Below, in pieces: positions 6,301-35,800 of a DNA stretch of 64,000 bases. The notes under the pieces were generated by a model, which had not been told where the DNA came from, did no database searches, and saw nothing but the letters and a program-made list of their open reading frames with translations. A program made the position numbers and the translations under genes. Every line of letters starts with the position of its first letter. Within the stretch, counting starts at the first letter, position 1. This stretch comes from Lingula anatina. Lineage: Eukaryota; Animalia; Brachiopoda. Location of the stretch: the NCBI GenBank assembly GCA_051362555.1, contig CM120642.1, forward strand, positions 13,826,001-13,890,000. Reading direction: 5' to 3'.

Positions 6301-9300
6301 AGAGTTGGCTTTCATATTCTATGGCTCTGGCATTTCAGCTATTTGTACCTTGAAATGCATTCATTTCAGCAGCTCCATCACTCACTGCATCCATCTTGGA
6401 ACGCCTGTCATTCTGATATGCTATACAAATATTTTTGTACATATAACTATATTCTGCTCTTAAGCTAACAATTTCCATTTCTTGCTCTGCCATAAATGTC
6501 ATTGTATGGTCAAACTCTTACATACACAGGTTTGCCAACTTCTGAAAAAAATGTGTTGATGTATTATTGTTAATTTTGCTATAAACCATAATAGAGTAAC
6601 AGACTAAAACAAAAAGAAATAATAGGCATGATAGAAGAATGAAAAGCTCAGTTGGCACACCTGTATGCTGCACCATGATTGAAGTGGCAAAATAACATCA
6701 CTCTTATACATAGCTTGTGCACCCATTGATAGTATGTTGCCAGTTTTTGTGTATATAGAAATGCTTTTGATTCAAACCTGAAGAGGTCATTGTACCAATT
6801 TATCGAAAGTTTTAGGATTGTTTGTATTATTATGAGACATACATTTGAATGTATTTTACATATATTTTAATGTTTACTGCTGCATCAGTTTATTTTTACC
6901 AATTACAGAATTGTTATGACAGCTATGTGGAGTCTAGGATCAGTAGTTGCCCTTATTTTATTCTGAACAGTTTGTGTAATTTAGATTGCAAAAAAATGGG
7001 ATGTTCCTTTTTTGGAGTTTGTAGTTTGTATCGAAAGAGTACATGAATTGATTTATTTGCATTTTGATTTTTTTTGTCATTTTAGGGTCTGTTTTTCAAC
7101 AAGATGGTGCTAAAAGTTTATCATTTTCTAATGTTTGACTCATTTTAACAAAATCAAGGTCGTCAATTTGCATGATTTGTTTAGCTAAATAAGCCATTTT
7201 GGATTTTAATTCATTCTGAAGTTAATAGATTTCATTCATCAAATAAAAGCAGTATTTTAAAGCAGTCTATCCTACAAAAAATGTCAGGAATTGTCGGTTT
7301 GGGTGTATACTTCCCTTCACAAATATTGATAATGATTATATAATTTAAATATATCTGGAAAAAAGGAAATTATGAAGTCTTATATTTCGGTTAATTTGAC
7401 CAAATGAACAGAAGCTGAAAAGTATTACTGCATATATATACTTATGATGAAGGGTTGTTTTGAATAGCATGCTCGGTAAAACTATCACTTTTTTAGCATT
7501 AAAAATATACAGATTCATTATCTTTCTTAATTTTTATTGAAACACAATAATAGAACTATCCAAAGTTTTGCACAGGATTGTTGTTCATTGAATTGGTAAA
7601 TTTGAGCAAATATCTATTGCGCCTCTTGTACATTGCAGTGGGGAAACAGGATCTGCTGCTGGCAAGAACTTAAATACCATCAAATCACTCAGAGTGCTAA
7701 GAGTACTGAGACCACTCAAAACTATCAACAGAGTGCCCAAACTTAAGGTAAGTGCACAAAAACTAAAACTTAAACTGGACTTAAAATGTCTGCAGCTGGC
7801 ATCAGTGATGAGTCAATGCTGTGTGAATTTGTGTTGCATGCATGTGTATATGGACTATTGACTAAGCTATTTAAAAACGTTAATTTGAATATGAGTGCAG
7901 TGACAAGTTTAAGCATGTTTTTGCATTCCATATGGACACAAGGTCTATAAAGTGTACTTTTAAATGTATTTCAGGCTGTGTTTGACTGTGTGCTGTCATC
8001 ACTGAAAAATGTATTCAACATCCTCATAGTGTACACTCTCTTCCAATTGATATTTTCCGTGATTGCCGTTCAGCTATTTAAAGGAAAGTTCTATCACTGC
8101 ACAGACTCATCAAAGATGGAAGAGAAAGAGTGCCAGTGAGTAACAAACCTTGTTTTACAGGATTTTTTTTATCTTAAAGATTTTATGTCAGTTCTGAATC
8201 AGATAATATACATCTGAAGGCCCTTTTTGTCTTTTTTATTGTTAGGAAATACATGTGAGGAATGTTTTGTGAGGAATCTATTAAAGTATTTTAGAGGACA
8301 AAAGTTAACAAATACTATAAGACTCTGCCAGTGAATGACTGAGTCAGCTGAATGCGAAATGAGGAGATGAAATGTACTGGGATCATTATTGATTCTTCTT
8401 TTGTCATTTTAGGGGACAATATTTTGTATATGAAAGTTCAGACGATTCTGATGCCCAGACTCCGAAAGTGGAAGAGCGTGTATGGGAGCCATATGACTTT
8501 GCCTATGATAATGTAGCTATGGCATGGTTAACACTGTTTACTGTATCCACGGGAGAAGGATGGCCTCAGTAAGCACTACTTTCAGTCAACTTTGTGCATT
8601 CTAGCATATTATTATTGAAGTTGCCAAAAACATTCAACAATCAAAGCTTGACTTGAAGATTACCGTGTTTTGCCATTTTATACGTAATCTTATACACGAG
8701 TTTTTTCACAAGCCAGGATTTCTTTAATTAAGTGTTAGAATTAAAATGAAAAAATAAATAAAATGAATTAAAATGAATACAGCTTGTGGAACCACTCTGT
8801 ATTCCTGCATAATTTATACTATGCCAGGTCCCACTTGTTTACATTGAGCACTCCTGTTTCAGGGTACTCCAGCATTCCATGGACTCCACAGAGGAAGGAA
8901 GAGGTCCTTCACCCGGTGCCCATCAGGAGACAGCCATGTTTTATGTTGTCTTCTTTATTGTCTTTCCATTCTTCTTTGTCAATATATTTGTTGCCTTAAT
9001 CATCATTACATTTCAAGAACAAGGCGAAAATGAGCTTGTGGACCAGGATTTAGATAAAAATCAGGTAACGTCTTCACTTGCTATGGCCTAACAAAGGATA
9101 ATATGTGCATGACCAAATGGTCAGATATTGTTATATTCAGGCACAATTTTTCTGACATCATTCCAATTTTTTCTTGCAAATTTGCCACGTTAAGGGACCT
9201 CCATACCCTCCAGTCTTATGGCCACTAAGCCATTTTACCTACTTGTTTTTAGATGTGTATAATTTATGGTAAAATGGTGAAGTTGGACTAACTTTTTGTG

Positions 9301-12300
9301 GTGTATGGTAGTTGAAAATCTGTCTGATTGCTTTCTGCAGCTAATTAAGCTCGTAGTTTAATTTCTTAAATTTATTCTTGTATCATATTGAATAATTACC
9401 ATTCCTTAGTTTTTAATCTTGTTTCATGCTTTTTTTATTTTTTAAAATATGTAGTAAAGAATGGTTTCTTCTTTCCAATTTTACAGAAACAATGTATAGA
9501 CTTTGCTATTCATGCAAGGCCTATATGTCGCTATATGCCCAAAAACAAAGACTCTGTAAAGTTTCGCATTTGGAAACTTGTCACATCTGCACACTTTGAG
9601 TATTTTATCATGGGCATGATTGCTTTGAACACAGTGGTACTCATGATGAAGGTATGTATTTAAGTATGAAATTGTAACATTTGTAAGCTGGAAATCAATT
9701 AACTGATTGTTTAGAACTGTTTTAACTTGTGTCAAGTGTTGAAATGGTTTTGAAATAGTCATACTGTAGAGTTTAAGATTACTCTATAATTTTAAAGCAA
9801 ATTAAAATTGTTGACAAATGAAGTTATGATTTTTTATCAAAAAGAACTTATTGTTGGCAAAAAAGATAAATCATTTATTTCAGAATTTATCACCAATTAC
9901 CATTATCTTTATTTTTCTGTCAGTTTTGATTCCAGGCTGAGACCTTGACATCTTTTTACTTTCTTGATAATTGTTGATGATTTGTTTGTCAGTAAATAGA
10001 ATGATTGCTGATAAGATAATGAATTAAATGTTTAGGTTATCACCTATTTTTTAATGAAGAATTACAGTCAATGTTTTATATTATATTTTCCATAATAACA
10101 AGAGATTTATATATTTTTAAATTGTATTGCTTCAAACTATATCAACTTTAATATGAATGATTTCTTTATCTCTCCACAGTTTTATAATATGCCAGAAACA
10201 TACACCTACGTCCTTAGCTACCTTAATATTACCTTCACCATCTTATTTACCGTGGAATGTGTCCTTAAGATTATTGCTTTTGGACCAAAGGTAAAAATGA
10301 ATGCTGACTTAGCTCTTGCTTTAGGGTGGTGGTGAAGGGAAACTTTAAGAAAAAGAATGAATAATATGAAATAGCCTTATCTTTTTTTCTTATCACACTG
10401 CACAGAGATGTTATATATATATATTATGGGCTTGGTGGGTTTTTGGTTCAACAATTTGAAAACCAAAACATTTAACTTCCTGAAGTCAGCAAGTTTTTAC
10501 AGCTTTTAACAATTTATTTTTGACTGAAGGTTTGGTTTAGCTTTTGGAAAGTTTTAATGACACATATTTATGAAGTGCCCACACTCTGTGATAAGACAAG
10601 AGAGATGAGGTATATTTTTGCCTTGCTGAACCAAGTTAACTTGTAAACTCATGCTTCTGGCAGTATTCTTACCATCCCATGGTATGCCCCTTTTCATTTT
10701 AAAAAGATGATGGATTCACAAGATGGTTGACTTGTAATCTGAATCTAGGTATGCCCTTTGGACTTTAAAATTCACACATGACCTTTCAAAGTCTACATCC
10801 TGCTGTTATGACCCTCACCCTAGATACTCAAAGTGCATTAAAAAAAATAGTGATCCTTATTAGAATAGAAAAATTTCCTAAGTAGTATGTAGGTCCTCAA
10901 TGGTTAAGCTATGAAGAAACTCCTGTGTGCATAACCCATGACTTTAAGTGGTTTGCACCTGTGTTCTAACTGATGGCTTGTGGTGTTAGGAATTACTGTT
11001 CCAGTACCACTATTTCAGATCATGTGTCGTTATTATCAGTTTTCTTTCTCATCTTCAGGGTAGTGGCCTGCAGCCTTTCTTTCAACCTTGGTGCTAGATT
11101 TGGTTTTACAACATTTAGACCTTTTTCATTTTGATTTTTAATGCTTTGTATTAGATATACTTTGGGGAAGAAGATAAACTTACCCAGACGCAGATTACCT
11201 ACAATGCATTCTTGCAACATTTCAATACTGGCTTTACAGCCATCTTTGTGACAGAGAGTATACTAAAGATGATTGGCTTTGGAGTCAAGGTTTGAATGTA
11301 TATGTGCATAATAAAATGTTATGTTCACATGGCCATTAAGTGCTTAATGTATGTCCTAGAAATGGTGTAAAATTCATGGTATTCTTGTTCGATGTTTTGT
11401 TTATTTAGGTCTTCATGTGACTTATGAAAATATACATGTAATTGAATGAATTTGTCAATCTTGCAATGTTTGGGAAAACAAAGTTTTTTAAAGACATTTT
11501 TTGGTGAACTTTCCACTTACTTTTTTGAATATTTATTTTAATAATGAAATGTGTTATCCAAAGATATACTTATCAATGTTATGTGTATTCAAATTTTTTT
11601 TAATGGGATTTAAAAAAAATTTCACTTTTTCATTTGTTATGGCAAACCATGAGTTTTCAACCATTGTGTGTCTATTTCTCTCTCTCTCTTTCTCTGCTGG
11701 GCTCTTTGTTGTAATTCTTTAACAAGATGTTGTTTTACTTGTAGTCTCTTGTTGTAAGTCTCCCCCCTCAACCTACAATGTTTTCTTGGGTGTATGCTTC
11801 TGTCCAAGATACATGTGTAGTGTATTTAGTGGATTACATGGAGAATTCTAGTGCTGGGATACTTCTTTAAGCAGATTCTTTTGTACCAGGTCTTGATTTT
11901 GCAGTGTCAATGCCAGGTGGATTTCATTAAAACAAAAACTTCATGGTGTTTAGTTTACATTCAATTTTCCAGGACCCAAGAAATGTTATGCAACTATCCC
12001 ATTTATGTTGTCTCTGCACCAGTCATGCCACATTGTTAAAAGCAAAAAAAGTTGATATTTGGTATTTACACCTACCCCTTTCATTAGTTGAAAGTCATGT
12101 AAATTATGTCAAAATACATCACATGATTTGGCAACTTATGGTCAAGTTAGTGATGTGCAACACCAAAAGATGTCCATCATACAATAAAATGATCATATAC
12201 TGATGCCAGAGGTGCCACAGTAAAGGTGACTTTTTATATTTGATCAAAAATTTTTAAAACCCCATAGTCATATTTTTTCATCTTTTCAAAGCTTCTTTGG

Positions 12301-15300
12301 AAGGCAAACTGCAAATTAAATATTTAAATTCAATGTGCTATTATGTATATGACTCACATTGTCACCTTTGCTGTAAATATAGCTAATTGTGCGCCCTGCT
12401 TTCAGTTTCTCTGCATGTTACGATGTATTCATCTACTGTCATAAGCATGAGACCTTGCAAGTTAACTTGCCTGGTTGTGGTTGCCTTTGCTGTTACGTCA
12501 ACCAGCTGTTACCTAGAAACAGGTGTCATGGACCTAACCAGACAACCATTTTGATTGGCTGTCCTGATTTGGTTGCATGGAAGTTCATCTGTTTGTATTG
12601 GCCAGCTGTAATTGTTATGGCAACAAATAGTTCTTTAACATTAATTTGCACATATATATATATAGCAAGGTATAGGGAGCCTTTAGGCTGGAGTTTTACC
12701 ACTGGACATTGATTTTATTTTGCTTTCTAGATGTGCCGCTGTTACAATTCTCTGATTTACAGACACCAGTTAAGCTCTTCATCAGTTGGCTGTCAAAGCA
12801 TCTCACATTTATTATTATTATTATTATCTGCTATTATAAATTCATCTTATTTATGAGTATCTTGTTTTTCTACTTTTTTACTTTTGTGTCTATCACTTCT
12901 TCTGCGAACCAGACTACCTCAGGTCCAGATCCTACCCCTGCAGACAAAACATACGCTGAAACACTGGGCTACTTAAATATCGCCTTTACCGCTGTATTTG
13001 CCATTGAGTGCATCCTCAAGATAATAGCTTTTGGACCTCAGGTTTGGTCTTGTACTGCAAAGAATGGCAACTTAACAATGTTTAAAGTCAAGCAAATGGG
13101 CTAAGACTGGAGATGATGCTGGCAGAAACCTATTTTGAAAAAATATATGAATATAAGTATGTATATATGTGTATATGTACTAGTATACCTGATAAACAAT
13201 TGTTTCAAGGTCTTGGGCAGTTTATACAGATGATCTGTGATTACCAGATTCATGCTGCTTGGTGGTTTCTATTCCAAAATGCATAATTGATCAGTAATCA
13301 TTCAATTTTTTTTAAAAGAAAGGCATTATTAGATATCACTTGGTGGTTTTAATGTGTTTGCATAACATAATCCTGCCATTTTCATCTCATGTCTTATTCC
13401 TTAGCTAACTGACAGTAAAATAAAGTGGCTGATGTATCGAGTGTTTTTGCCAAGCCAATTTGTCCCCCTTGTACAATGTAATTGTTCAGACCTATAGCTA
13501 TAGTGAAGTGGACATGACGTCTGTTGCAGCTATCCTGCTATCCTGCCATTAGGTTATTGATATGATTGTATGTCACCTTCAGCAACTTTATAAGATTTTA
13601 AATGTAATGGACCTTTTAACTGATTACCACTTGGTAAGTTAATTTGTTTGCTTTTGTCAAGTTTTGGAAAGCCATTTACAGTTTATAGTTTGCTGCTAAA
13701 TGTTACCCCAATCTTTGTATTAACTTACCATAGGCCATAATATTAATGTTTCCCGTTGTATCATTTTTGTGTGCACTATATGTCATAATATAAGGCTCGA
13801 ATATGTGAGTACCATATAATGCTTTTATCCCTCAACAAACTTTTGCTACAGTAATTTTTGCTGGACTTTTTAACAATGTGCAGGAAAGATTATTAGAAAT
13901 TAGCAGTTGGATTTCTCAAAATCTGATTCCATTGCAAATTTTAGGAAATGTCATTAGAAATTAACCGTTCCACTCCAGCCATACACCTTGTCTGTAAGTC
14001 AAATAAAATTCATTGGATTTAGTAACAATATGGTTCACTTTGGATGTAGGTGAATAACATATTTAAATGAAGATAAAAAGAAAAAATTATTTTTCTGATT
14101 CGTAAAATTGAATCTGTGTGTAAGATGTAGAACCTTCATTTAACGAAGGCAGGAAAAGGATGTGGAATTGACTGGCAAATAAAAAACCTGATTACCCCAG
14201 TCTTAGAATATCTAGCGCTGACATAAGTATGACGATGTTTAAAAATGATTGGAGCTCTACCTTCTAACTAAGTTTGCAGAAACCGATGAATCATATATGA
14301 AACCAGAGTGCACTTGATATTTGACAAAAGACAAAACATTTTGAACTCAGAATTTTTATCAAAATACTATTTATTACCTTTTTTGACATTTAAAGTTACA
14401 TTCTTAAAGCAGATTTTTGCCTTTAAAAAAGTAGTTGGGGACTTTAAAATTCTCTGAAATTGGGAAAAAGGGTATTTTTTCTTATGATTTACCAGAGAAA
14501 GTGTAGACATAAAAGCAACAGAGATTTAGATAGACATAGGAACCTCAATTTAACACTTGATAGCATACTTATATATGAATCTCATGCATGAGAAAACTTT
14601 TTCTCAGCTTTTAATAGCCTACTTTTGATTCATTTTGCTTCATCACATTTGCCCGTCTCCCTAGCTTCCTTCATACCTGCAATGTTTTTGCTGCTAGTTG
14701 CTTTTTTTTTTTTTCATTTGCTGTTTTCTGTTATGGATCTTAGTGTTTAGTTTATTTATATAATCCTCTACAAGCTATCAGGTTTTCATAAATTGCTTTA
14801 TTTAAATAGATTTTGTTGTTGGTAAAATATTCTGTAACAGTTGTAATATCCAGTGAGCATAGTATTGCCATAGTATTTTATGGATTGAAAATCAATTGCA
14901 TTGATTAGTGATAGCACCCATGCCTTATTTTGCATCTGATCAGTGATATAGCACAACATGCATAAGTTTCAATTTGATCTTCCTTACTTTGTTTAATATG
15001 AAACAAAAAAGAATACAGGAATAAGATGCTAGCTGCAGCCATATCATTTGCCACATTCTGTGCCACCTTTGGATTAAATTGTATGAAATTTAATGATTGT
15101 ATAGATTTTGATTTTTTTTTAAACATCAAATTTACCATGTAGTTTATTTTAGATTTTGAATCGGAATTAAAATTTTTGGTGGAAGTCTGAGATAAAAATT
15201 ATTATTCATATGATATGTGCCTTTTTGCACCTAATTTGATTCTCATCAGACAAAAAACTCTGCCTTCAAGAAAGTCAGTATAAATAATTGCCATACATAT

Positions 15301-18300
15301 TAAAACTTCCTTTTCTTAATGCTTTCAGTAGAATTGATCAGATATATGATTTCAGTGATGTTTAAAAACTGAAATTTTCAAAATTGCTGCCCTTTCAGAT
15401 GTATTTCAATGATAACTGGAATACCTTTGATAGTGTTACAGTATTGGGTTCTATCACTGATGTTATAGTAACTGAACTTAAAATGTCTACAGTAAGTAGT
15501 AAATATAAATGATAATCAGTTTGGTTTTTGGAATGATAAGAGCATATCTGTGCATCTTCATTGGAATGAATCTTAGCCATTGCAAAATTTTAAAGGTCAA
15601 TATACATATGAGATGTGATTAAAAAAGGCACAATTACAAAGATTTCTACCTTTTGAGAATTATCTTCACTAGTGTATGAACACTAAAAAGTAACCTTATA
15701 TTTTGCAATGGCAAAGAACATTTGTAATGCCTACACCATGTAATTAATTGACATTTTAAGCACATTCATCTTTTTCAGAATTATTTCCGAGATCCGTGGA
15801 ACGTGTTTGATTTTGTCACTGTGCTTGGAAGTATCACGGATGTTTTAGTCTCTGTTCTCAACACAGTAAGTTATTCAGTTGATGACACATTCAACACACA
15901 CAAAAGCTGCATCTGAATGGGCATATATGTTTTGTCATACCATTGTTTGTTGTAAGCCTTGTCAGAAGTTATAATGGCACTTTAGGTATGGTTTTAAATT
16001 GTAGTTTTAGAGAAATCAGTTGATGGGCATAAGATATTTAAAGAAGAAATATTTTTGTATTTTTGACAAAGATTGATTTGCAAAAAAGTTGACATGTCAG
16101 TAATTTCCATATATCCTTAACAGTTGGTTCCTAGTCTATTTGAGGTAGGAGCACCGCTAAAAAAGCTTTAAACTGCATGGTGCAGAAACCAGATTGTTTT
16201 GAGATGATTGGTTAATTTTTCACCAATTGCAAAAGTGCTGTCAGACTGGAAATGCTTGATTGAAAACTTAAGTTTTGTTGTTTTGTTGAAATTGTGGAAT
16301 TAGAAACTTATATGTTAAAGTTCATGAGTCTTACTACCTACCAATCATTGCATCAAAGCATTTTCATTTTTTTTTTCTACCAATTTTTCACTATGAAAAA
16401 AATTCAAATTCAAGAAAGGTAAAATGTATTACACAGTTGTTCTAATTTTTGTAACTAATTGAAAAAAAGATGAATATTTGGGAAGAAACCATTGATGGTA
16501 TTTACTCATTTACTGAATAAAGGGAACCCCTGGCTATGTGGTTTTTAATCTGACAGCATTTGGCAGGCATTTTATTTAAGTTGATTGATGTGGGTTTTCA
16601 TTGAATTGCAATGAGGTGACATCTGAGTGACTTTTTCTATGCCAATCTGAGATATCCCCCCCCCCCCTCTGGCCTACCTCCCAACCCCATAAACACACAA
16701 ACCATCTCCCCAATTTATTAAGGGTTTTTACCAAATATTACTAGATTTTGACCTGGGTTAGTTTGCTGTGAAAATTGAGTATGTAAACAACAAGGCACCT
16801 AGCATCAGGCTGTTGGTAATTATTTACAAAACATCCACAAAGAGAAACTTACATTTGATGCTGCTTGCAAAAGACAAAACTTGTTTGCAAGCCAATTTCA
16901 AAAAAGGTTGAAATTTAGAAGTCTGAATTGAAAGGGTGTTTCTTATCAGGTTGATTTTTTTTTAGTCGAATTATGTGTTTTTTGGCTTTTTGGGGGGAAC
17001 AAGTGAAATAGTGAAATATACCTGATGATAGTTGCCAAGATGTGCTAACATTCCCCACAGCCTAAGCTACTTCTTGGAGACCCCTAATACATTTTATACT
17101 ATTGTCATAGGATCTCTGAATGTAGCTTCAAAACACTTTGTAGATGTGTTGCATGAGCCCACTAACACTACTAGGTCACTGGATATTTCTGAATGTTTTT
17201 GTCTTTTGCATGCATTTATACTTCATAGATATGGCTCACCTATATGTGGTCTACGTCTTCCATCCTGTACTCTATCACTTCTAATTGTTTTCCTTACATT
17301 TGACCTTTTTTGTCTTCTTTTTATAGACATTTGTATAGGATACTTAGAAAAGGCAGTTGAAAAACATTATCCAATATATCATTTCAAGTTTCACTGAAGA
17401 CTTTGACACATTTGGTTGAGACGAATGTGCCAGTCGCACCAAACGCAATCACTTCTGTAAAGAACACAATTTACTATTATGCTTTACACTTATATTTTAC
17501 ACATCTGTCCCACTCAGCACAATAGCAGAAGACAAGTCAAAACACTTGGTACACAAGACAAATGATAAACAGGTACTCACGCCAAAAAAAAAAAAAAAAA
17601 GCAATTTGCCAAATACCTAATCTGGGTTAGGATTTTGACTGTTACAACTATAAGCATTCTACAACATATTGGCAACAGCTATGTTTATGCTTAATACACT
17701 TCACTACTTAACAATAAACCCAGTGAACTGCCTTTTAGATCTTATGCTGTGTCACTGCTAGTGCACGAACATCTAACAACAAAAACGGATTCATAGAATT
17801 GTTAAACTATTGAAGTCACATGTGCTTATTGTTGAAAAATGAATATCCTTTTCAGTAAAAGTATTTCCTAACTGAGTTAACACAAATGCAATTTAAAAAG
17901 TGCATAGCATAAAAGAAACTTACTGCCTGAAGATTCCTTATTTTTATAAGTTTTTGGTCAATGATTAAAAATGTAGAAGTATAGACATTTATTTATTTAG
18001 TTTTTTTTACATGTTTGTAGAAAAAACATCCTAGATTTGATTTGTACCACCATTTTCTCTGATGTGTTTTCTTTGTCTGTTATTTATTTTATATATTTAT
18101 TTATTTGATTTTTTGTCATACTTTTAACTAGTTCTCTTTTTCTAAGTGTAACGTACTTGAATACTATCTTCATTCATTCTGTGTTGTTTAGACTTAGTCT
18201 ACTAATAATGCTCTGTATTTCTACTAATTCCTCAGGACCTGGTAGTGGCATTTTATATACTATTGGCACCTTAAATCACAGCAGTTCCTTATCAGCATGT

Positions 18301-21300
18301 TTGTAGAGTGATGTTGCACTTGCTTGGAGTGATAGTGAAACACTTTCCAGATTAAACTGAAAGGAAATTAGCATTGCTGCCCATGACATCTTGCACATCA
18401 CAGCAAAGGGCATTTTTACAGTAAGCTGTGCAAAGCTTAGCATCACTGTACTAATTTTAATAAACCAGGCTTGGGAATTAAAAAAGTCAGAAAGGTCCTC
18501 CTGAAGATTTGCAAATTCAGCGTAAAAACTGTGTTTGGCAAAATTTTGCCTTTTTATCTGAAAGTTGTTTTCATCTGTGACTCTTAAATGACATAATATG
18601 GAAGAGGGTAGAAAACATATGAAGTCTATGTGGATGGGATTATTGGAATCCTCAGGAGGGGGGGGGGGGTCTGTAGCATGGAAACTGCAGAAGGTAACCT
18701 TGTAAAACAAGCCCTGGTGGAAAACACTAAGTCATACTCTGCAGATTCATATGCCTTTTTGCCATAGTTAATCTCTATTTTCTGTTAATATTACTTTGAT
18801 TTTCCACATGCTATTGATATATTGATATACCAAACAAATGTAATATTTTGCACAACATATTATCAAGGGAATATCCAGGAAATATGAGAGGGGTGTCTCG
18901 AACTAGGGTAAACTCAGAGATCTGGTTTTGTGTCCATTGTTTAGTATTTGGTTTTTGGGGTACATGTGTATCTGGCTCCAGAAAAGAGCATTTTCTTACG
19001 AATAACCTTTCCTTTGGTATATCCAGAGTACAGGAGAAATTCTGAACTTTTGTAAAGAACACATCTATCACTTTATGTTTGTAAACAAAAAATATCAAGC
19101 AAAGTTGTATTGTATTGTATTGTTATTTCACCAACCACCTAAACTGCCATGCTCATGATATAGCTAGTTGTGTTGTCATGCTTATCTACTCTATTTTCAT
19201 GGTTACCAGTTATATTGTTGTGAGAGCTCAATATAGCATGGTGATTAGCACCATTGCCATGGTAACCATGTGACATTATCTTTGAAACTAAATGTAAACT
19301 CATTGTATTCGGGGTTTATGGCTAAAGGGGTTATGAAAGGGATCTAAATTGACAAAAAAAATCTAAAATGGGTCTGTAAGTCAGTGTTTGGTATGCTTAT
19401 TTTAAAGTTGTAAATGCATTTAAATGTTTCCCAGTGTGCATCCCCTTTTACCTTTAAGACAAACATGTTGTTGGCTGTTATTGGACAGAACTTGTAATAG
19501 TGGCAATTACTCACATATTTAAGACTTCTGACTTATTCCAATATAAATGTATACATACATATATATTTGAAATTTTTTATTTCTGTTTTAGTTCTAAACA
19601 TTGTAGACAACTAACTGAATCTGTACAAGATGGATCTGACACTTTGCAGAATATTGAATTTTTGGTTAAAATATTTTGTAAAATATAATTGTTTAAACTT
19701 GGTTGAAAGATGTTAATAATTCACACTTCTATCCATTAGATATATTCATATTGCTTTTCTGGATTTTGATATAGTTTTTTTTCTGTATCAAAACATATTT
19801 TAAATAGGAATTGTAATTTTTTTAAATTGTGAGTAAGTGATGGCCACATCTACAAGAGTTTGTATTCACTGCTTGTAAAACTAACCTACCAACCCAAACC
19901 TGCCATTCATGTATGGATGTAAATACTTCATAAAGCACTAGCTTTGAGAAATTCATATTACTGGTACCCTAAGTTTTGCTGTTTGAATGAAAGAAAATTA
20001 AGATCTACATTTTGTTGCCATTTTGGGATAATCAAAAAAAAAAAAAGTTGAAATATTGTTAAGTGGTATATCTTGTTTAATATATATTATTCCCTTTAAG
20101 GAGGGTCTGCCTGATATGTCTCTGCACTGCAAATGTCACACAAGGAACTTGCAATAGCTTTTGGTCATAGTATTATATAGTATTACACCAAACTGCTTTT
20201 AATGTCCATTAAAAATTGCAGACTAAATGAAGTTATGATAAAATCTTCATCATGTACCGTTATGACACTGCTTGTTTGCATCTACTCAGACACAGTAAGA
20301 CATTTCAGTGTTTATGGAAGGACCTCATGAACATGATTCATGGTATTCACAAGGACTTGTTTTCAGTGTTGAAAATAGAATTATTTGCAATAACACTGTG
20401 ACACTTGTTTCTTAGTGGTTTGAATGAAGTCAGTATATAAAGCAATATGTGAAAAATGACACGTTTGCCTTTTTTCTCACTTTTCCTGTCAGTTGTGATA
20501 AGTTTCAAAGAACTGTGCTGATAGCACTAGTTTCAGATCAATGAACTGATTACCTTATGCATTTGCGTATGAAAACCACAGTGACATAGGGCGATTCTAT
20601 AGATATTAAAAACAGACCAAGGAAAAGTAAATCCATGTGATTGGTTTGTTACTTTGGACTGTGGAGACAATATTTGAAATAGCCACTATTACCGGGTAGC
20701 TCCTTTAGTTGGGCATGTACAACAGGCTTCCAAGTGATGCCCCTTAAAGTTCTGACCTCCGTTATCTGCTTCCTGTATTTTATTCCCTTCTTGCTATTTT
20801 TGTCATATTCCTCCATTACAAAATTCTGTCATCAGTATTTAAGTTTTAGGTAGTAGTATTTATGCTGTTGTGATAAGTGTATTTTTTATGTGATGATGAT
20901 TAAAAATGGAAGAATTTGAATGTTCCCAAATGGGGAAATGAAGTTTTTTTTTTATACAAAATTTCTTAAATCATTAACCTTGTTGTTATGTGGCTAAATT
21001 GATCTAATGATTTCTGTTTATAAAAGTTGTGGCAACTATCTGAAATGTTTAATTTTGTACCACCAGCTTGGCAAGTTGGAGGTGCTGTGGACATGTGTCT
21101 TATTCAAAACCTCAAAACCACATAGAATCACAAACAATAAGATGTTTTAGTCCTAAATAATAAAGGATACCCTGTTCATTTTTCATTATTTATCACTCAC
21201 TTTTACATTGCTTGAAAGTTTGCCACTGTTGCTTCTCATCCTCTGTGATGTCTTAAGACAAATATTGTCCGTCCAAAAACTTCTATATTACAGTTATTAA

Positions 21301-24300
21301 GTCATGTATTTGAGAAGTATAAAATTGACATTATTTGGTGTTGTTGACCTATTTTAAGTTACAGAAAGCCGTTTGGTGGTACATAATAAGGAGGTAACTG
21401 TTACCTCTCTGAAATCTCAGGTTTTCCTTTTCTTTCATATGTTGAGAGTCTGAATTAGATTTCATTTAATTTTAGATAGTTTAACTAATCAGTTTATTTG
21501 TTAGCCATGAATTCATCTTGTTAACAGAAAATTTTTCATGACCTGTCTATCATGCCATACTGCTTACCCACATTTGGTATTCTTCTTTCTCATATATAAA
21601 CTCAGCTCTTGGCTGATATTCTGCTTTGCTTTTTCATTTTTCATCCACCTAAAGCAAACTAATTCAGAGGACTATTTTTTTTTCAATTTTCATGGCATTC
21701 ACTCCTACTTTCATTAAATTTTTACTTTTTATTTTTTGTTTGTTTTGTGACTTGTGTTATAGCCAGGTGGGCTGATTAAATTGGGATTCCTTAGGATGTT
21801 CCGTGCTGCCCGCACTATCCGTATTCTGAATCGTGGCTCCACTATCAGGTGTTTGCTGTGGACTTTCATACAATCGTTTAAGGTAATCAGGGCACTGATT
21901 GCTCAGTTTGACCGTTACGCAACTGGCCAGGAGGGTGAGAAAAAACTGGGCACCTCTCTGCAAGTTTGTCAATGTCACGGCTTCCATGGGGAGAGTTTGG
22001 GTTAAAAATACCAGGCAAGGCCACACAGTTGAAACAAACTTCAATTTTGAAATCTCATTGTATTTGGTAAAAATTGTTCTGTTTGCAGAAATTGTTATGT
22101 TTTTTAATCAGTTTCATACTTTAAACTAAAATCTTGAACTAAATGAATCACCCAGATTTCTCCTTCCAAAGAAGCATTGTGTGACCTCTATCTTGCAGAT
22201 AGGCACAGCTATAAAACTTTTTCTCACTGTGACCTGACCTTTCACTTACAGTCTGGTAGAAGCATAAATTTGGGATTTCTACGTCTCTTCCGAGCTGCTC
22301 GTCTGATCAAATTGCTTCGTCAGGGCGGTACAATCCGTATTCTGCTCTGGACTTTTGTGCAATCATTCAAGGTAAATATAGTACTATGTTGAAGTTGATT
22401 GGGTGTTCACTTGTCAACAGAAAAATGTATATATTATATAAAACCAAGGTAAACATAAAATGCAGACCTTTCTTAATTGTCCTAAAAGGAAACAAAATTT
22501 GAGTAAGTAATTATATATAAATAGCAAGTCTTTGAGCTGTTCATGTTTTGTGGAATAGGGTGGTTCAAAATAGCAACTTTTTTCCACTGTCAAGTTTGTC
22601 AACTTAGAATACTGAGAGAAGTTTCTTTATTTGTAGATTCATACCATATTCTCATTTATATTTCAATACAGTTGTGATATGCATTTTCATTGCAATCGAT
22701 TGTGTTTATCTAGGCACTGCCCTATGTGTGTTTGCTCATCCTTATGCTGTTCTTCATATACGCCATTGTTGGGATGCAGGTAGGTTCTGTGAGTGATAAA
22801 AGTGAGATATATAATGTAAAAATTAGAAAATAAACCATTATGAAAGTATCTAGAAGTTTTTATTCAGCAAAAATATTTCTTTTTGTTCTGTTTTGCTTCT
22901 CAGATCAACATTTATGTACTTCATTGTCAAAAAAAATTTTTTTAAATTTTATTTTGAAATAAGGGAGGTTTAGGTGATCATTTCATCTAAAAAATAAAAT
23001 TAGACATTTGAACAATTGATATTTTGCCCTAAGACTTTGTCAGTTTATAAATAATAACATGATAGACATTAAACAATCCAAGTTTTCTTTGTAGATATTT
23101 GGAAATATTAAATTTGTCGACGACAAGGCTATCAATCGCCACAATAACTTCCGTACCTTTCCTCAAGCCGTGGTGCTGCTATTTAGGTAAGTGCTTGAAT
23201 CTGTGTAACAGGTGAGCAGTGGATGCCAAGATTTTAATGTGAAAGTAATAAATAGATTATGAAAGAAAAATAAATTTGCTTTTATATGAAAAATGAGGAT
23301 TAAGTTTTGCTAAGAGATGAATGTATTTTGGATTTATCCAGGTATATGGGTATTGTATTTATGCCCCCCCCTCCCAGCACCCCATATAGAACTGCCTTCC
23401 TCAACCTCTTGCATTTTCTTGATTTCTCTTAAAGGTCAACTATTTAAATTTTTCACCTTTCTCTTTTTACTTCTTTAAAGATAAAATAATGGTTTGCAAA
23501 TAAAATCCACCCCTGAGCCAGTCATGTTGTTTGGGGACGTGTTGATATATTGATTTTTAAAATCAAAATTAATACAATTACAATCGAGCTAATGGATGCA
23601 AATGAGTTTTTTTTTATCAATCATATCATGCTGATCAAGGAGAATTTTTGTTCCTATCAGGTATTAATCTTTACCATTGGCTGTTTAACCAGAGGTCTTA
23701 CATTTTTGCCTTAAAAAAATGCTAAATTTCAGCCATGATGCATTTTTTAATTCCTGTTAATTGTTACATCTGAGACATGTTGCCCCTACAAGTGTCTTAC
23801 GTTTTATTATTTTGGCTTCTATTTTAGGTGCTCCACTGGAGAGGCCTGGCAAGACATCATGTTGAGCTGCATTTCGGGGGCTCCATGTGAAGTGCCTGAA
23901 GACGAGGAGGAGTCAAATGACTGCGGCACTGTTCTGGCATACATGTACTTTGTATCATTCGTCTTTTTCAGCTCTTTTCTTGTAAGTAACATAAATGTTG
24001 TTTGTGGTGTGTGTTATGCATATTTTCCTTTAGATATGAAAAGAATATTTTATTTCGATCAAGACAAAAAAAAAAGGATTTTGATAATGTTTTCAGTTAA
24101 AATGCAAAGAATACACATTGATGATAGAATCTACATAAATTCTTTGCTTTTTATATGGTTATCATGATGTTTCACAAATCAATTTACGATTTGTTGTAGA
24201 TGCTGAACTTGTTTGTTGCTGTTATTATGGACAATTTTGATTATTTGACGCGAGATTCCTCTATTTTGGGACCACATCATTTGGATGAGTACATCCGAGT

Positions 24301-27300
24301 TTGGTCAGATTATGACCCAACTGCATCGTAAGTATGGCTTTGTATAAAGAATGTACTATATTTTTTTAAAGCAGAGTAAAGATCTGCTCAGGCCATGGTA
24401 ATTTATACAGAATGATAATGTCAAATTTTCTTTTCTTTTATATGATGGCGTGAAAGCATGTTTAATCATATTCTTTACTGAACATGATACTAAAAGTAGA
24501 TGCATCCAAATATACATACTTGTCTTTTCTTTGAAAGGTTACATTCATTCAAATCTGTTTCAGTGGCCGGATCTCTTACCAGGATATGTATGATTTGCTA
24601 AGAAATCTAGAACCGCCTGTAGGATTTGGCAAGAAATGTCCATACAGGCTTGCCTATAGGGTAGGTGGTGATTATTTTGTTGAAATATGACTTGTATACA
24701 GTTCTGTCACTAGGGTTACCTTACTGGTCAGCTACAGATAAAATAATGTTCTTGTGCGACTTAAGTGTGGCCACAAGGCACAAACTTCATGATACCTGAT
24801 TTGAAGCTGGAATTAACTTAATAATTGATTAGTTATTTGTAAACAGAATGTTGCACTTGCAAAGTCATAATCTGGGCTAACCATAGCATAACATTGGTGT
24901 AAGCAAGATAACTGAAACATTTAGACATCAGAAATTAAAAATTTGGTCAATAGAGATAGAGTGTCGCATTCTGAACAGACCCTAATAGTGATGTAGATTA
25001 ACTTATTATTTAGCGCATGCATACCTTACTTTGCTGGGTTGTGGTGACCCAGTCATTTATCTTAACATGACAACAAAATAGAATGCTGCTAGTAATTAAC
25101 CTTAAACATTTGCACCAAAAATACTAATAATTTTTGGTCTTGTAACAAGATGGTATGATGTATCGCTAAACGCTTACAAACTTTGAATTTTTGTATCAAA
25201 TGTTACTACCATCCCCCTCCTGTATTAAAATCTGTTTTGACAATTGAAGTAATAACTATAGTAAAGTTGGTAACCTTTTTTTAATTGACGATATGGACAG
25301 TGAAAACAATCGCACAAAAGCACTGCTATATTTCAGTGAATCAAAATGATGATGCAAGCTTAGCAGAATGTGGTGTTTCCCAATCATAGCTTATTTACTA
25401 ACTGATATCTTACAGAAACTAATCCGCATGAACATGCCTGTAGCAGAGGATGGTACTGTGCACTTTACCACTACTCTTTTTGCCTTGGTGAGGGAATCGC
25501 TTCAGATAAAGATGAGCCTAGGTATGAAAATTGAGAGTAATTTTTATGATTTATTTAGTACTAATTATTATATTTTTCTTATAAATAGGATTGTCATGGG
25601 TCTGTTGTGCTGGGTTTTAGGACTTATTAGAAACTGGCCCCTTCAGTTTATGCATGGTTGAAATCATTGAAATTATTAAGATGGTGGAAACAAAAAAATG
25701 GAAGCCATTTTTAAAAGTCCTGGCTTTTTCTCACATCTTACAGTAATTGTAATTGTATTGTTCTCTTAAAGCATTGTGGTTGGTCTAAAGAGCTTGATAC
25801 ATTCTCAAAAATTCACAGAATATTACAGAATGTTTTTATGGCCAGAAAATTTGAAGTCTACTACCCAGCTTTTTATAGAAACATCCAGTTTGTAGAAGCA
25901 CATGGCATTTCTATATTTGCATCAAATGGATATTCAAGTGTTACACATTTGTAAAGAAAAAAGTGTAACATATACATGCAGCTCCATGTCAGTCGGAGAA
26001 AGGCCATCAATGATGACAACCACACAATAATGAAGGTTAAGATTTCCTCTGCTTTTGTACATAGAAAACATCTCATTGGATAATTTACCATGTTGAGGAT
26101 GTGCAATGGCCCAACAAGGTGTATTCAAGGACAGATCATCACACCTGTAAAATTATTGATATTTATTGGAATATTGTTTCAGGTCATTGGAGAACTCATA
26201 TATTATATATTTTGAGTAATTATTATGGTAATTTGTTATCTTTTGAGGTCACACAAGCCTTTTTTTATTTAAGAAAAATAATGTTTTCAGTGATATGGTG
26301 GCATGAACCTATTAATAATTGTATTACTATGAAAACTATACCTGTCATCTGCAAAACATTAAATGTTGTGAGAAATTTCCATCTAATCATATACCTAATC
26401 TTTTGCATGGCCTTTTAGACAAGGAAGTTTCAGGTTTGGAAATTATTGATACAGTGCATTAGTGCGGTGAATTTTTTTTTCTTTGCTTTTCTTTTCTTTT
26501 TCTGCAACTGGTGCTACATTGTATTCTTATTGCAACACATTTGTGCACCTGTACCATTCTTTGACATATTTAAAAGATACTATCTTATGATTGCACTTAA
26601 CAAATTGCCATTTTAGTTTGGCACATATTTCAAGTACATATGCGCTTGCATATAAGGCATTGAAAACCATGAAAAACAGATCAGGTTTTGTTCATGATTG
26701 AAATTATGGTGGAAACAGAAAAAAAATGGAAGCCATTTTTTAAACTCCTGGCTTTTTCTCACATATTACAGTAATTGTGCTCCAGTTGCAGATCACTTGA
26801 ACTGTGCGTGCATTGTGATATATCATTTACAGAGTTTAAAGAATCTGCCCAGCCTATTAAATGCCTTCTTGATAGATCTTGAAGAAGAAAATAGACTGCT
26901 ATTTTTGTAACTTTTTAACTATCACATGCTTCTTCCTTTAAATTGAAAATTTCAAAAGCCCGCTTCACTTTCTCAGCCACTTTTGCCAGCCACTGCCTTT
27001 TGAATAATTAAAAGTACCTTATAAAATCAATTCTGTTTATTTCAGTCATTAACATGCTATTTCTATGAACAGATTTATTATTTCATATTTGTTAAACCTA
27101 TTTATAAATTACACTTCTAACATATTTCCAATGTATCAATTTTCATTTTATAAACTCTCTCATACTGACAAAGCCATGCAATTTTAGTTGAACCCATTCT
27201 TGATTGTCTAGCCTTTTAGCTGGCCAGATACAAGCCAATAACATGTAACCATTGACGAAAATATGTTTCTCATATTTATCCTCAAAATACTTCAAAAACT

Positions 27301-30300
27301 ATCTTTTAGTAGAAACATTTGGTTGAACTAGTTGATATTTGTAGTGTGGTGTATTGTCTTTGACAATTAGGCTGTGAAATGTTATTTAGATAAAATTGGT
27401 TGACTTCAGTGAGTATATTACATATAAAAAAGAGTTTGTGTGTGTGTGTGTGTTATTTTAGCAGGAAGGTTAATCGTTGCTGAATTTAAAAAATGCTCCT
27501 TTTACAACCATCATGTTGATTGATGTGGCCAACTTGGACATAGTTTTGTATTGTGTCAGAAATGATATCTCAACAGATTACATTTGATGTTTTGAAAAGG
27601 AGTAACATGAAACAAATTTGCAGTCTGTGGGATCTGAATGTTATTGTAATTTGGGAGTGTGCAGTTTAGGTCATTTATTATTTGAAAAACTTTGTAAAAA
27701 AAACTTCTTCAGACAAATGCTGGAAATTAAAATTTGAAATTTGATAGACACATAAATTTGATTTAGATTAGGGATATGCCATCTATAATAAAAAGCATTT
27801 TACACTTCTGTTAATACTGAAATATGAAATGATGTAGGCTTTTGGTTTATTCATAATTAGTTGAATACAAATGTGATGATAAAGAATGATAATAACAATG
27901 CCCAATGTAACAAGAAAATCTACATGTTATTTTAAAGAAAGTGTAAATTAGGTCCAGTTTTTATGTAATCTTAATACATTGTGAAGTTTTATACATCTTT
28001 ACTGGTTTCATTTTATAGCTGATGAAATGGATCAAAAGGATGAAGAACTCAGAGATGTTATACGGAAAATGTGGCCCTTGCAGTCAAAGAAACCAAAGAC
28101 TATCAAGTTGTTGGTGCCACCAAATGAAGGTTTGGGTTCACTTGATTTATTACAATTACGTTTGCATTAAAGAAAAGCTGTATCAATTATCATGATGATA
28201 GCTAGGCCAGGGTGAAGAATAAGGGTTAAGTTACAGACTTCATCTTACTGAAAATTGTGGGTGGAAATCAAAAAGTAGTTGTAGTAATGTTAAAATGCAG
28301 TTATTATAAGCATCTATTATAATTGAAAGATAAAAGTTGAAACATCCAGACATTTAGATATCATTTGGTCAACTTAATGAAAAAATTAGGGATTTTATCA
28401 TTTTCATGCATAGATAACATATGTTTATTTATATATATTTTTTTTCAGAATTGAATAATGGAAAGATGACAGTTGGTAAGATCTATGCAGGCCTTCTGAT
28501 AGCAGAGAACTGGAAAGCCTACAAAGCCAGTCAGACAAGAACAAACCATGCCAAATCAGTAAGTTTTCCAGAAATTCATCTGATTCATTTCTCTTATTTT
28601 CAGGAAATGGCAATTAATGTTCCAATTGCTGGCATTTGCTTCAGTGCAATAAAAATCTATAAAAGTTATACCTTTCAAGTAAAATCTGTTGTTAAAAGAG
28701 TCTTGTAATTGAATGGCTTATTATGATAGACATTTGCCTTTGTGCTTTAACTATATGCCCAAATGTAATGGTGCTCTTTCGTATTTCTTTATGTAAATAA
28801 TGGGCAATATGTACTACTTTCTGTGCCTTTAATATACATAAAGATGATCTTCTTAAATGGTACCCCTACACCCCTTCCCAACTCACCAATTAAACACCTC
28901 CTGCACTCTACCCAATGCACCTATTAATCAACTGCTGCGTGTTTGCACAGTCACCTATAGTGATGTATTTATAACCAACACAGTAAAAGTGCCTTAGTTT
29001 AAACTGTGAACTAACATTCTAAGTCCATAATACTTACAATTGATTTTTTTATTATGCTTTCTTATCTACAATGTAGCCTCATTGTAATGTTGATCAAGTC
29101 GAAAATTGTGAGGTAGTTTACTATATATTTAGCATCTGTGTAAAAATCCCACCGCTGCTGCCACTGTTGCCACCTATAGTTGGAGAAGTTCCCATGTACA
29201 GAACAGAACAGTGTTCATTTTTGGCAAATTAAGATGCATGCTAGTCAAATGGTAACTGGGAGAGGGATGAAGAATTAGATATTATGTATACATATCCATA
29301 AACTAGTATCTCTTATAAACAGGTATTTGGGTTCATGCATGAAATGTTCTGAATCATTTTTATGGTGATGTATATGATTGCAACTGTCCTCATTGGAAAT
29401 ACGTTTCTTAACTGTTAACCTGATACTTATAAATGAGCACTGTTTAACTGGGATTTTAATCCTGGTGAGGAAGGCAAGTGTATACTCTGTGGTGAGAGCT
29501 GTTCCCAAAGGTGCATGCAATTAAAGTGATTTTCATTAATTAAAAAGGTAAAATCACTTTAGTTTTATGGTAAATGGGTGATACGGTTCAGAACCACAAG
29601 GAGCTGAAGCATCATGGCAACATCTGTTCTTGTGAGTAGATAGATGTAACCTGCTTCTCCCCACCTTCTTGTTGCAGGTCACTCCTCCACCTCCTAAAAA
29701 AGCTGAAGAGGTTAGTCTGCACAAGCACTGTAATCTTCACATGACTTGATTACTATCACTCACTGATGATCAGCAGTCAACACAAGTCATGTGGCTTTCA
29801 ATTTTTTACATTTTGCATGTTTGCTTGCAGAAATTTACTATGTAGTTGTATTTTTTCAGTATTAATTCATGTATACTTTTTATGAATGTTGATTGAAATT
29901 GTGGATGATACTCTTCACTGCAAACCATACTAAGCCTTGTAATGTAGTCACTTTCCTCCATTTTCATACCACTAACATTTTCAATGAATTATTTACTTTA
30001 CAAAATGTAATTCCTGTAAGACCTGTCAAGTGAAGGTGCAAACAAAATATACCAGACAATCCTTGAACTAAAGATGCATGCTTTGCTTATGGACAGTGGT
30101 TGGGGGATTTCTAAATGTGTTTTAGTTTTGTTTTAGAAGTAGTTCAAGTTTTTTATTGGTGGTCATTACTTATATTAAGCCAGTATCCAAAATTATAGAT
30201 ATTTAGCATCCTACCTTATATTTATAGTTCCCAACATACGTATGTCATCTGGGTATTCAGAAATTGCTCAAGGATGAATGGATGTTGAAAAGAAGTTTTA

Positions 30301-32856: not shown

Positions 32857-35800
32857 CATGTCTTGACAATGCAAGAAATCTTTTCACATCAGTTATGTTT
32901 TCAATTTGTATCTGATTTCAGTTTCCATGCTTTAAAAAAATGCCCTTCTTCTTCTTCTTATTATTATTATTATAAAGATTTGGCCCAAACACGTAATTGT
33001 GAAGGATTTGCCCGTAGCCAGAAAGATATTGTTTAGAGTATTAAAGCTAATCACGTTCATTAATATAATGGTCTTCAGTTACTGCTTTGCAGTTAATGAT
33101 TCAGAAGGTGTGTAGAAAAATCATCAAAAACAATTAATCTATGTTGCACTTATCTCAGAAATTTTTCTGGTGGTAGTTACTTTTCTATGTATTGAAGAAA
33201 TTGCTTTATCAAGGCAGTATTGGAACATTTTTTTTTTTTTTACTCTGATGTAAATGGCTTCCCATGGGTAACAAGGGATTTAGTGCCATCTAGTGTCAAT
33301 TTTTACAATAAGAGTTGAGATTCAGTACACTAATTGTTTTAATCATTATGGATGGCTGTTCTTTCATATGATATGATTCAACACTGTACTTGCTTACTTT
33401 CACAATCACTGATTGAGAATATTTGACCTTGGCATCCAATTGTCAAGTATTACATAAAAATGCATTCAAAAACATGTTCATTGAACAAGATTGTTAGATA
33501 AGTTAGGTATTATTTAGTTACATGCAGTTATGTTGGCACAGCATCTAGATATTTGTTGACCAAATGGTATAAATCTCTTTTCCAGAGACCCCAGTCATTG
33601 TTGAAGAGAGTAATGGGTGTTCTGAAGACCACGCCCACCCAGGACAGTTTTGATAATGGAGATGAATATGGCCATGAGCCTGGATACAGGTACTGAACAC
33701 TTGACCACAGTTTGTGGCTTGTCTGAAAAGTTTATTTTGCTGTGAGTCTCAACATCTGTCTTCGATATTACAGGATGTGAAAGGGCTGGGGGGGGGGGGG
33801 GGTACTTTACAATAAGACCTGGAATAAGACCTGAAGGGCAGTGCAAATTTTAAACAATTTTAAACATTGCTGCTGATCAGATTTTATATTTGAAGTCTTT
33901 ACAGAGTAGTACTTTGAACTGATTTTATTATCCAAAAAAGTGTTGGCCAGAGTCAGTTCTATTTAATTGGTTCAAAACCCAAAAGCTTTAAACGAAAATC
34001 AACATGAAAAAAAGTTGAACAAATGAATGGGAATATGTAAGTGTCTGGAAGAACCACTTGATAATTCTCACTCAGATAAAAGACATTTTCTTAGTCTCTG
34101 AAACTAGATATTCTCTGACTCATTTATTTCATGAGCCTGAGAATTGTTTTTGCTTAATCTTGAAACGAAAAAGATCATGGTTTAATTTACAATTTGCTAA
34201 AATAGTAAAATGTATGTAATGCTTCTTTATGTGTGGAAAATTGCATACATTTCTTCTCCTTCCTTGAAAGGGTTTGAGTGATTGAAATGTTCCTGCTTTT
34301 CTTACTGTTTTCTGAACTTATAAGCTAAGATTCATACTGATTTTGCTGTCATATTCTCATCTGTACATTTTGTGAATAGCTATGCAGTGTACTGAGGTTC
34401 CACATATTAATCCCCAAGTATGACTAGGAAAATTGTGCAAAAGTGGTATATGCTTAGTTTTATATTTGGCAGAAATTACTTACAAGTTTGTTTTTTTTTT
34501 TTGGTTTGGGCAGATACACCAGCTGAAAGAATAATACAAAATCTTGCAAATACCAACACATTTGTAACTAGTTGAATATGAATACTAGGAAGGGTGGAAT
34601 GCTTGAAGATATTTCAATGTTACATTTAGTTAGAAATGCGGAGAATGAACAGTCTTTTAAAAGGGAAATCAATATAGATAGGTTTATTTCAGCATTGGAA
34701 CATCTACTAGTTTTGTATCATACAGAAAACAAAAATGATAAATCAATTTAAATGGAATGTATTTAGATGCTCAATTTTGTTTTGCTTTTTCCTCCCCTGC
34801 TTTTCTGCTAGCCCCAATCACTTGTCTCCATCACGGGGACTGATTGGGACTAGCTCTCGCTCAGGAAGCAAGCAAAGGTGAGGCACTAGCTGTCACAACT
34901 AACGCAATAGCTGACACCTGCTTATGGCACAACTAACGCAATGACTAATACATGCTTCTAGGATTGCAGTAACCAGCACCAGTCGCTAATTGCACAACCC
35001 ATCACAATTACCATCACAATGTCAAATTCATCACTTGGTTAAGCTGATATTTTTATTGCACCATTGAATATCATTTGCATATTGAAAGGTTTTTTATTTA
35101 ATGCATTAACCAATACCTGTATGCCAAGTAATAGGTTTTTACCTTTTAATTAATGAATTTGATTTGTTCATCATTATGAATGGCTTCTTTGCTAATGTAT
35201 GATAGAATAGGCTTATATTTAAGTTACAAAGCCTTGCAAAAATAAGTTGCCGTCCAGCCCCCCTCTCATAATTTGCTTTAAAACAACATAAGTAGTTTTA
35301 GGTTGCTGTGTCCCTGGGAAGCTAGTTGATGAGAATTGGGATATTAAATGAAATTTTGGAGTTATTCTTTTTGATTGATGTTTAACAGGTAATGAGCTCT
35401 AGGTCAACTGAACATTTAAGTAATTTTATTCCTTAGTAGACTGAACTCCTTGCACACCACAATAAAATTGACAGTAAACTTTGATTTGTTGAATGAATCA
35501 TCACAGAATTTCCTAATTATTGTTTTCTAAAGAAGAAAAGAAGCTCCGGGTTCATCTTAACCTTGAACCAGCAAAAAAAAAAAAAATTGATAAAAAAAGA
35601 TCCCAGTTACTATCTGCTCTAGCATGTACTGCAACAACTGAAGTAGTTAAACTGGTACAACAGTTCCATATGTAAGAGGCGAATACCCATCTACAGCTGA
35701 CTTGTAAATAACTTATTGTCGGATAGACTAGTAACAACTAATATAGGATAGAAATATCTAACAAATATGACTTCCTTTCTATGAATGCTCACTTTTAAGA

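Follow-up and report, generated by a model that had tools for sequence, protein, structure and literature searches.

Duplicated exons for three helices of one voltage sensor in the Cav2 calcium channel gene of the brachiopod Lingula anatina

How many versions of a single voltage sensor can one calcium channel gene encode? This question is raised by a stretch of 64,000 nucleotides from Lingula anatina (assembly GCA_051362555.1, contig CM120642.1, positions 13,826,001 to 13,890,000 of the forward strand), hereafter the window, which contains much of a Cav2 alpha-1 gene. In the part of the gene that encodes the domain IV sensor, we found three clusters of duplicated exons, with three copies for helix S2, two for S3, and two for S4, together with a small exon for seven residues of the S3-S4 loop. 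In the explanation that we favor with reasonable confidence, each messenger RNA (mRNA) would draw one exon from each cluster, and this choice, along with the loop cassette, would tune the domain IV sensor of the channel. Coordinates below are those of the window and lie on its forward (+) strand unless stated otherwise, and IVS1 to IVS5 denote helices S1 to S5 of domain IV.

By its sequence, the locus is a brachiopod Cav2 gene, as the original prediction had held. The exon for IIIS6 (8864-9064) is 100% identical to the L. anatina voltage-dependent calcium channel type A alpha-1 (XP_013405220.1), the RefSeq model that we refer to as P0003; an older public Lingula model is referred to as P0121. 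The IVS4 exons are nearer to Cav2 than to Cav1. Specifically, the canonical copy (S4b) scored 50-53 bits against human Cav2.1-2.3 and 27-31 bits against Cav1, and scores for the other copy (S4a) are given below. Finally, the translated last coding exon terminates in DDWC, the acidic WC PDZ ligand of the Cav2 alpha-1 C terminus, which has been described as a Cav2 motif (PMC10657410).

The domain IV sensor is bounded by two exons that occur once. The first (9487-9651) encodes the end of the III-IV linker and IVS1 and matches both Lingula models exactly; the second (22714-22779) encodes IVS5 and is likewise found in the Lingula models. Three of the exons between them encode the S1-S2 loop and IVS2: S2a (10180-10290; 111 nucleotides, 37 residues), which has a short loop and is the copy used by the RefSeq model, and S2b (11155-11289; 135 nucleotides, 45 residues) and S2c (12913-13041; 129 nucleotides, 43 residues), which have long loops and identical boundaries in P0121. 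IVS3 is encoded by S3a (15399-15491; 93 nucleotides, 31 residues), found in neither public model, and S3b (15779-15865; 87 nucleotides, 29 residues), found in both. The same holds for IVS4 with the S4-S5 linker, where S4a (21763-21882) is in neither model and S4b (22252-22371) is in both, each having 120 nucleotides and 40 residues. All seven exons are phase 0-0, a multiple of three in length, stop-free, and flanked by AG and GT. Tandem, adjacent paralogous exons with matching phase, compatible length, and intact splice sites have the anatomy of mutually exclusive exons. By a crude splice-site score, S2b, the most diverged S2 copy, has the weakest donor, and the splice sites of S3a and S4a score like those of used exons.

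To count the copies independently of the gene models, we relied on helix-specific profile hidden Markov models (HMMs), built from a collection of proteins (see below) together with these exons and read at a threshold of 8 bits. Matches for S1, S2, S3, S4, and S5 numbered 1, 3, 2, 2, and 1, respectively, in 9000-23500, with scores of 52-118 bits. No further helix copy reached 8 bits in that region, and no second copies of other exons were found in the mapped part of the gene. Coordinates and HMM counts therefore agree with the prediction of seven paralogous, phase 0-0, stop-free exons between single IVS1 and IVS5 exons. The predicted ceiling of 3 x 2 x 2 = 12 sensors needs correction. It had missed an in-frame microexon for the S3-S4 loop (16124-16144; 21 nucleotides, 7 residues), which is present in P0003 and not in P0121; because this microexon doubles the combinations, the ceiling is 24. 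By the crude splice-site score, it is the only candidate exon in the S3b-S4a intron. In the S2c-S3a intron, an 81-nucleotide stop-free stretch between AG and GT (13553-13633) also passes this score without an HMM match to any helix, which is probably due to chance.

The two public models treat the clusters differently. P0003 takes one exon per cluster, following the path S2a, S3b, microexon, S4b. P0121 strings S2a, S2b, and S2c together, continues with S3b and S4b, and omits the microexon; S2b and S2c occur only in this model. From the difference between the models, the microexon is likely optional. The use of one exon per cluster is supported by its fit to the RefSeq model and to the IVS2 exon pair of Aplysia Cav2, whose mutually exclusive use has been confirmed by polymerase chain reaction and which is also listed for Crassostrea and Octopus (PMC5818475). 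For Lingula, mutual exclusivity, free combination, and effects on gating are what we infer. With S3a and S4a missing from both public models, the sensor locus is under-annotated.

It is possible that duplicated exons could reflect an assembly or haplotype artefact. Some other Lingula assembly or model does likely carry a false duplication here: the block at 23095-29710, which runs from after IVS5 to the proximal C terminus, is found twice in P0121 and once in the window. However, the copies of the sensor exons are far too different to be recent duplicates of this kind. Paired copies differ at 60-78% of synonymous sites, and their 200-nucleotide flanks align like random windows (10 comparisons, in each of which 0.105-0.905 of 200 random pairs aligned as well). 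Moreover, the window contains no N, and P0121 has all three S2 exons letter for letter. We rejected assembly or haplotype duplication because the flanks are random-like and synonymous sites are near saturation, in line with the original description of strongly diverged copies with unrelated flanking introns. For the S2 copies the artefact is already refuted, and for the locus as a whole we give it almost no credence.

We then asked whether the copies have been maintained by selection. Nonsynonymous (dN) and synonymous (dS) divergence was 0.26 and 1.28 for S2a/S2c, 0.35 and 1.47 for S3a/S3b, and 0.34 and 2.04 for S4a/S4b, respectively, with dS saturated in both pairs that include S2b. Across the three measurable pairs, dN/dS was 0.17-0.24. 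Because a low dN/dS could arise from one constrained copy alone, we simulated pairs in which one copy was constrained and the other evolved neutrally, starting from the annotated copy under a simple mutation model (9 ages, 3,000 runs each). We scored runs that contained no stop and had at least the observed amino acid identity and third-position divergence. Under neutrality, the joint probability peaked at 0 for S4a (0/3,000 at each of the 9 ages) and 0.0013 for S3a, followed by 0.013 for S2c and 0.019 for S2b, which are the weakest rejections. The simulation thus rejected the possibility that the extra copies have been neutral pseudo-exons since duplication. Because neutrality rarely reproduced the observed exons, the extra copies appear to have been translated and selected during most of their history. 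Purifying selection is indicated for each copy, least strongly for S2b and S2c.

What might the copies change in the protein? S2a, S2b, and S2c all retain three residues of the charge-transfer center, Asn, Phe, and Glu, and diverge mostly in the extracellular S1-S2 loop; the S2 Asn and Phe have roles in this center. At a position in outer S3, S3a keeps a Glu shared by 51 of the 62 distinct non-Lingula sequences, and S3b has Val. In vertebrate Cav2.1, this position probably bears on the action of gating-modifier toxins. Both S3 copies retain the two S3 aspartates. The S2 Glu and S3 Asp have roles in the voltage sensor, with the S3 aspartates acting as countercharges in domain IV (PMC5330888).

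The S4 copies differ in their gating charges. S4b has five basic residues in register. In S4a, R1-R3 are kept, K4 is replaced by Arg and the fifth in-register Arg by Asn, an Arg lies one place later, and there is an extra Lys upstream; the charges are rearranged, not fewer in total. The x-R-G ending of S4a matches human Cav1.2 IVS4, and nematode-type Cav2 likewise has K4 as Arg and has lost the fifth Arg. Because these channels show such changes, those in S4a appear compatible with a working sensor. Despite this likeness, the idea that S4a was captured from a Cav1 gene was rejected, given that S4a is still nearer to human Cav2 (36-40 bits) than to Cav1 (26-31 bits). With its inner gating charges and S4-S5 linker altered and R1-R3 kept, S4a is the copy that we would most expect to change gating. 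In the S4-S5 linker, S4b itself has a Gly at a column occupied by Tyr in 38 of 42 distinct relatives and by Gly in none; the S4a residue is Ser. The voltage-sensing domain (VSD) of domain IV in human Cav2.2 activates close to pore opening (PMC11389781). Since Cav2 IVS4 is otherwise almost invariant over the animals sampled, S4a could be informative about this domain: a second, long-conserved IVS4 with rearranged inner charges would amount to a natural experiment on the part that domain IV plays in Cav2 gating.

To characterize the distribution of the clusters in other animals, we collected 290 proteins, 193 of which have a complete IVS1-S5 region and many of which are vertebrate Cav2.2. Two or three IVS2 segments are strung together in 16 of the 193 models, from nine species (Lingula, Nucella, two Elysia, Pinctada, three spiders, and lobster), with three copies also in the Elysia crispata model. 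Two S3 or two S4 segments occur in none of the 193, a test of low power since Lingula's own models also omit S3a and S4a. Genomic DNA offers a better test. Out of 198 confirmed loci on metagenome contigs, the best 80 were compared, a redundant set in which 42/80 share one S4 peptide and none was established as a close relative of Lingula. Two S2 exons were present in 5 of the 12 loci spanning S1-S3. Among 20 loci spanning S2-S4, there was no case of two S3 exons, and two S4 exons were absent from all 21 loci spanning S3-S5, just 7 of which have S4 as its own intron-flanked exon. Five loci (L016, L039, L042, L067, and L075) have two IVS2 exons and encode S4 and S5 in one exon, which in four of them also includes S3; because S4 and S5 share an exon, S4 could not be duplicated alone in these loci.

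The tandem exons of the Lingula S2 cluster each begin after IVS1, extend to the end of IVS2, and have the exon ends known from Aplysia. Elsewhere, annotation varies. Ornithodoros and Oedothorax have separate isoforms with a single copy of IVS2, the two IVS2 exons sit side by side in all four RefSeq isoforms of Panulirus (P0161 and P0265-P0267), and IVS2 is missing from one Biomphalaria isoform (P0126). In a tree of 50 S2 segments that asked about orthology to molluscan or arthropod copies, with 32 columns and thus too little data to decide origin, no Lingula copy had a strongly supported sister group. Taken from sequences and models, these patterns suggest that the IVS2 cluster is old or recurrent in protostomes (molluscs and arthropods), and the S3 and S4 pairs have so far been seen only in Lingula. 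Among protostomes the S2 choice is probably ancient; the S3 and S4 pairs were likely added later, on the lineage that led to Lingula.

The original prediction knew of no Cav2 in which S2, S3, and S4 of the same sensor could all be exchanged. The S2 cluster is not new, as an IVS2 pair is published for Aplysia and tandem IVS2 exons occur in molluscs and arthropods; S3 and S4 pairs were not found elsewhere among the loci and models compared. The closest known system is the 33a/33b pair of Aplysia Cav2, which also covers the IVS1-S2 loop and IVS2, has equal exon ends, and comes in short-loop and long-loop versions (PMC5818475, PMC10657410). Lingula differs from it in having three S2 copies as well as S3 and S4 pairs, which are not reported for Aplysia in the available text. 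Drosophila cacophony is a Cav2 gene with a mutually exclusive S4 pair, IS4A/IS4B, that differs in charge and shifts activation voltage (PMC11828482, PMC12370356). That pair is in domain I rather than domain IV, and the text available mentions no adjoining clusters for S2 or S3. The idea that one gene substitutes for the diversity of vertebrate Cav2.1, Cav2.2, and Cav2.3, which the original prediction applied to gating and toxin sensitivity here, is a published hypothesis for cacophony (PMC11828482) and for Lingula would be a conjecture. Vertebrate Cav1.2 has a mutually exclusive IVS3 pair (exons 31/32) and a nearby optional exon (cassette exon 33), which resembles Lingula, with effects on drug block and gating (PMC3596553). 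In contrast to Lingula, it is a Cav1 channel, the S2 exons that it has as a pair (21/22) belong to domain III, and no IVS4 pair is described in the available text. Sodium channels also have tandem alternative voltage-sensor exons (insect IIIS3-S4, PMC3805903; SCN exon 5a/5b, PMC12772994), although as described these form one cluster per sensor and not separate S2, S3, and S4 clusters.

The microexon has parallels as well. Its seven-residue insert is likened to known IVS3-S4 cassettes by position, not by exon homology. Exon 33 of Cav1.2 sits in this loop. Short optional inserts are described in the same loop at Cav2.2 e31a, the Cav2.1 exon 31 site, Cav1.1 exon 29, and a Drosophila exon; inserts in vertebrate Cav2.2 and Drosophila are reported in PMC10657410, and IVS3-S4 cassettes alter activation kinetics, voltage dependence, or agatoxin sensitivity (PMC10657410, PMC5330888, PMC11828482). 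Each ingredient of the Lingula sensor is thus precedented: the mollusc IVS2 pair, the Cav1.2 IVS3 pair, the domain I S4 pair of cacophony, and loop microexons. In a literature search that lacked most subscription journals, neither alternative IVS3 or IVS4 exons of an invertebrate Cav2, nor this Lingula locus, nor the stacking of all these ingredients on a single sensor turned up. What appears to be new is that the clusters are stacked in this way and that S4a, with its rearranged charges, is conserved.

If each mRNA takes one exon per cluster, how could the others be excluded? Steric blocking was not supported. It is unlikely because the four introns between copies within clusters are 287-1,623 nucleotides long, and in three of them branch-point-like motifs occur at the ordinary place, close to the 3' splice site and more than 250 nucleotides from the donor. 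Nonsense-mediated decay was not supported either; because all exons keep the frame, double inclusion would persist. A search for docking-site and selector RNA pairing yielded no standout among the 25 shown of 483 inverted repeats. Intron segments flanking S3a (15177-15248 and 15612-15651) can pair (-31.8 kcal/mol) in a way that would loop S3a out, and this stem, the best of 8 tests, beat 12/12 shuffles. We dropped it as a mechanism, since 2/50 control intron pairs were as good and it was absent from the local fold (z = -1.21). By default, the most likely enforcers of exclusivity are splicing factors that choose among the copies, rather than steric blocking or decay.

The same preservation of frame invites another view, in which the extra exons yield nonconducting or poorly trafficked channels, through double inclusion or through S3a or S4a, and so turn the current down. 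All exons being multiples of three, skipped and doubly included forms would stay in frame, and such forms are annotated in other species. Yet each copy keeps its charged sensor residues under purifying selection, which a poison exon would not need, and both Aplysia IVS2 forms supported transmission when expressed (PMC10657410). We consider down-regulation of this sort very improbable.

Whether the choices are made independently is a separate question. If S2, S3, loop, and S4 modules were freely combined, one gene could give up to 24 sensors, including some whose S4 has a Cav1-like inner charge pattern; free combination would then provide a natural library of helix swaps, from which the part of each helix in setting Cav2 gating could be read. 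We hold this view tentatively and think it rather doubtful. With nearly even chances, one exon per cluster is used and cell type ties the choices to one another (S3a might go only with S4a, for instance), giving few sensors rather than 12 or 24. In their clusters, S3a and S4a are each the upstream copy and each unannotated, S3 and S4 pair via countercharges in domain IV (PMC5330888), and exon choice in Aplysia and Drosophila is strongly biased by cell type (PMC10657410, PMC12370356); sensory neurons of Aplysia, for instance, favor a different IVS2 exon from that favored by the whole nervous system (PMC10657410). On the other hand, the copies lie along the gene in the order S3a-S3b-loop-S4a-S4b and therefore reflect separate single-exon duplications, not one block copy. 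A 5.6-kb intron separates the microexon from S4a, and no linking sequence feature was found among inverted repeats and intron-pair stems. Coupling of this kind narrows the explanation that we favor and does not exclude it. Under that explanation, each mRNA likely takes one exon per cluster, and the resulting channels are predicted to differ in activation voltage or kinetics. The combination S2a-S3b-S4b would be the main form, with S3a and S4a as minor forms restricted to certain cell types.

Several observations weigh against the use of one exon per cluster to tune the sensor. The use of S2b, S2c, S3a, and S4a is a prediction from genomic sequence, and S3a and S4a are in neither Lingula model. 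S3a has a Ser where 57 of 62 distinct non-Lingula sequences have Phe, and at 7 positions where the S4b residue is common, S4a matches none of the 42 distinct non-Lingula S4 sequences. A protein search with S4a, a weak test, returned three candidates, none significant, and none of the best 150 of 511 representatives resembled S4a more than S4b (top identity, 73%). The Panulirus and Biomphalaria isoforms may mean that exclusivity is leaky, or they may be model artefacts. No exclusion mechanism emerged from the steric, frame, and RNA-pairing analyses of the locus. As for function, swapping the IVS2 exons of Aplysia left the amplitude of the postsynaptic potential, its depression, and the reversal of depression unchanged (PMC10657410), and VSD IV of Cav1.2 has been reported to make no contribution to gating (cited in PMC5330888).

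The simulation may also leave room for recent loss after long use. S3a, S4a, or both could now be silent or negligible, with the S2 switch and the loop microexon alone in operation. Their absence from both models, the lack of an S4a-like protein among the best 150 of 511, and their substitutions at near-invariant columns would all fit. However, both are intact in frame, length, and splice sites, with scores like those of used exons, neutral decay since duplication was rejected, and P0121 shows that gene predictors choose copies arbitrarily. We therefore regard silent exons as unlikely and retain the explanation in which all three clusters are in use.

Beyond the sensor, the exon chains of P0003 and P0121 and the translation of the last exon map part of the Cav2 alpha-1 gene to 3303-43480 of the window; this part runs from the II-III linker through the final coding exon. 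P0003 ends at 33693 and P0121 at 42862. Because further coding exons in the region 33586-43480 reach the DDWC end at 43480, both public models lack the true Cav2 C terminus. Downstream of Cav2, exons of a gene for Sin1, a TORC2 subunit, lie on the opposite strand (49926-50591, -), with a CRIM domain above the Pfam cut-off. Farther along, 53893-54063 (+) is likely the first coding exon of a PBX/extradenticle gene, containing the start of a PBC domain that scored below the Pfam cut-off.

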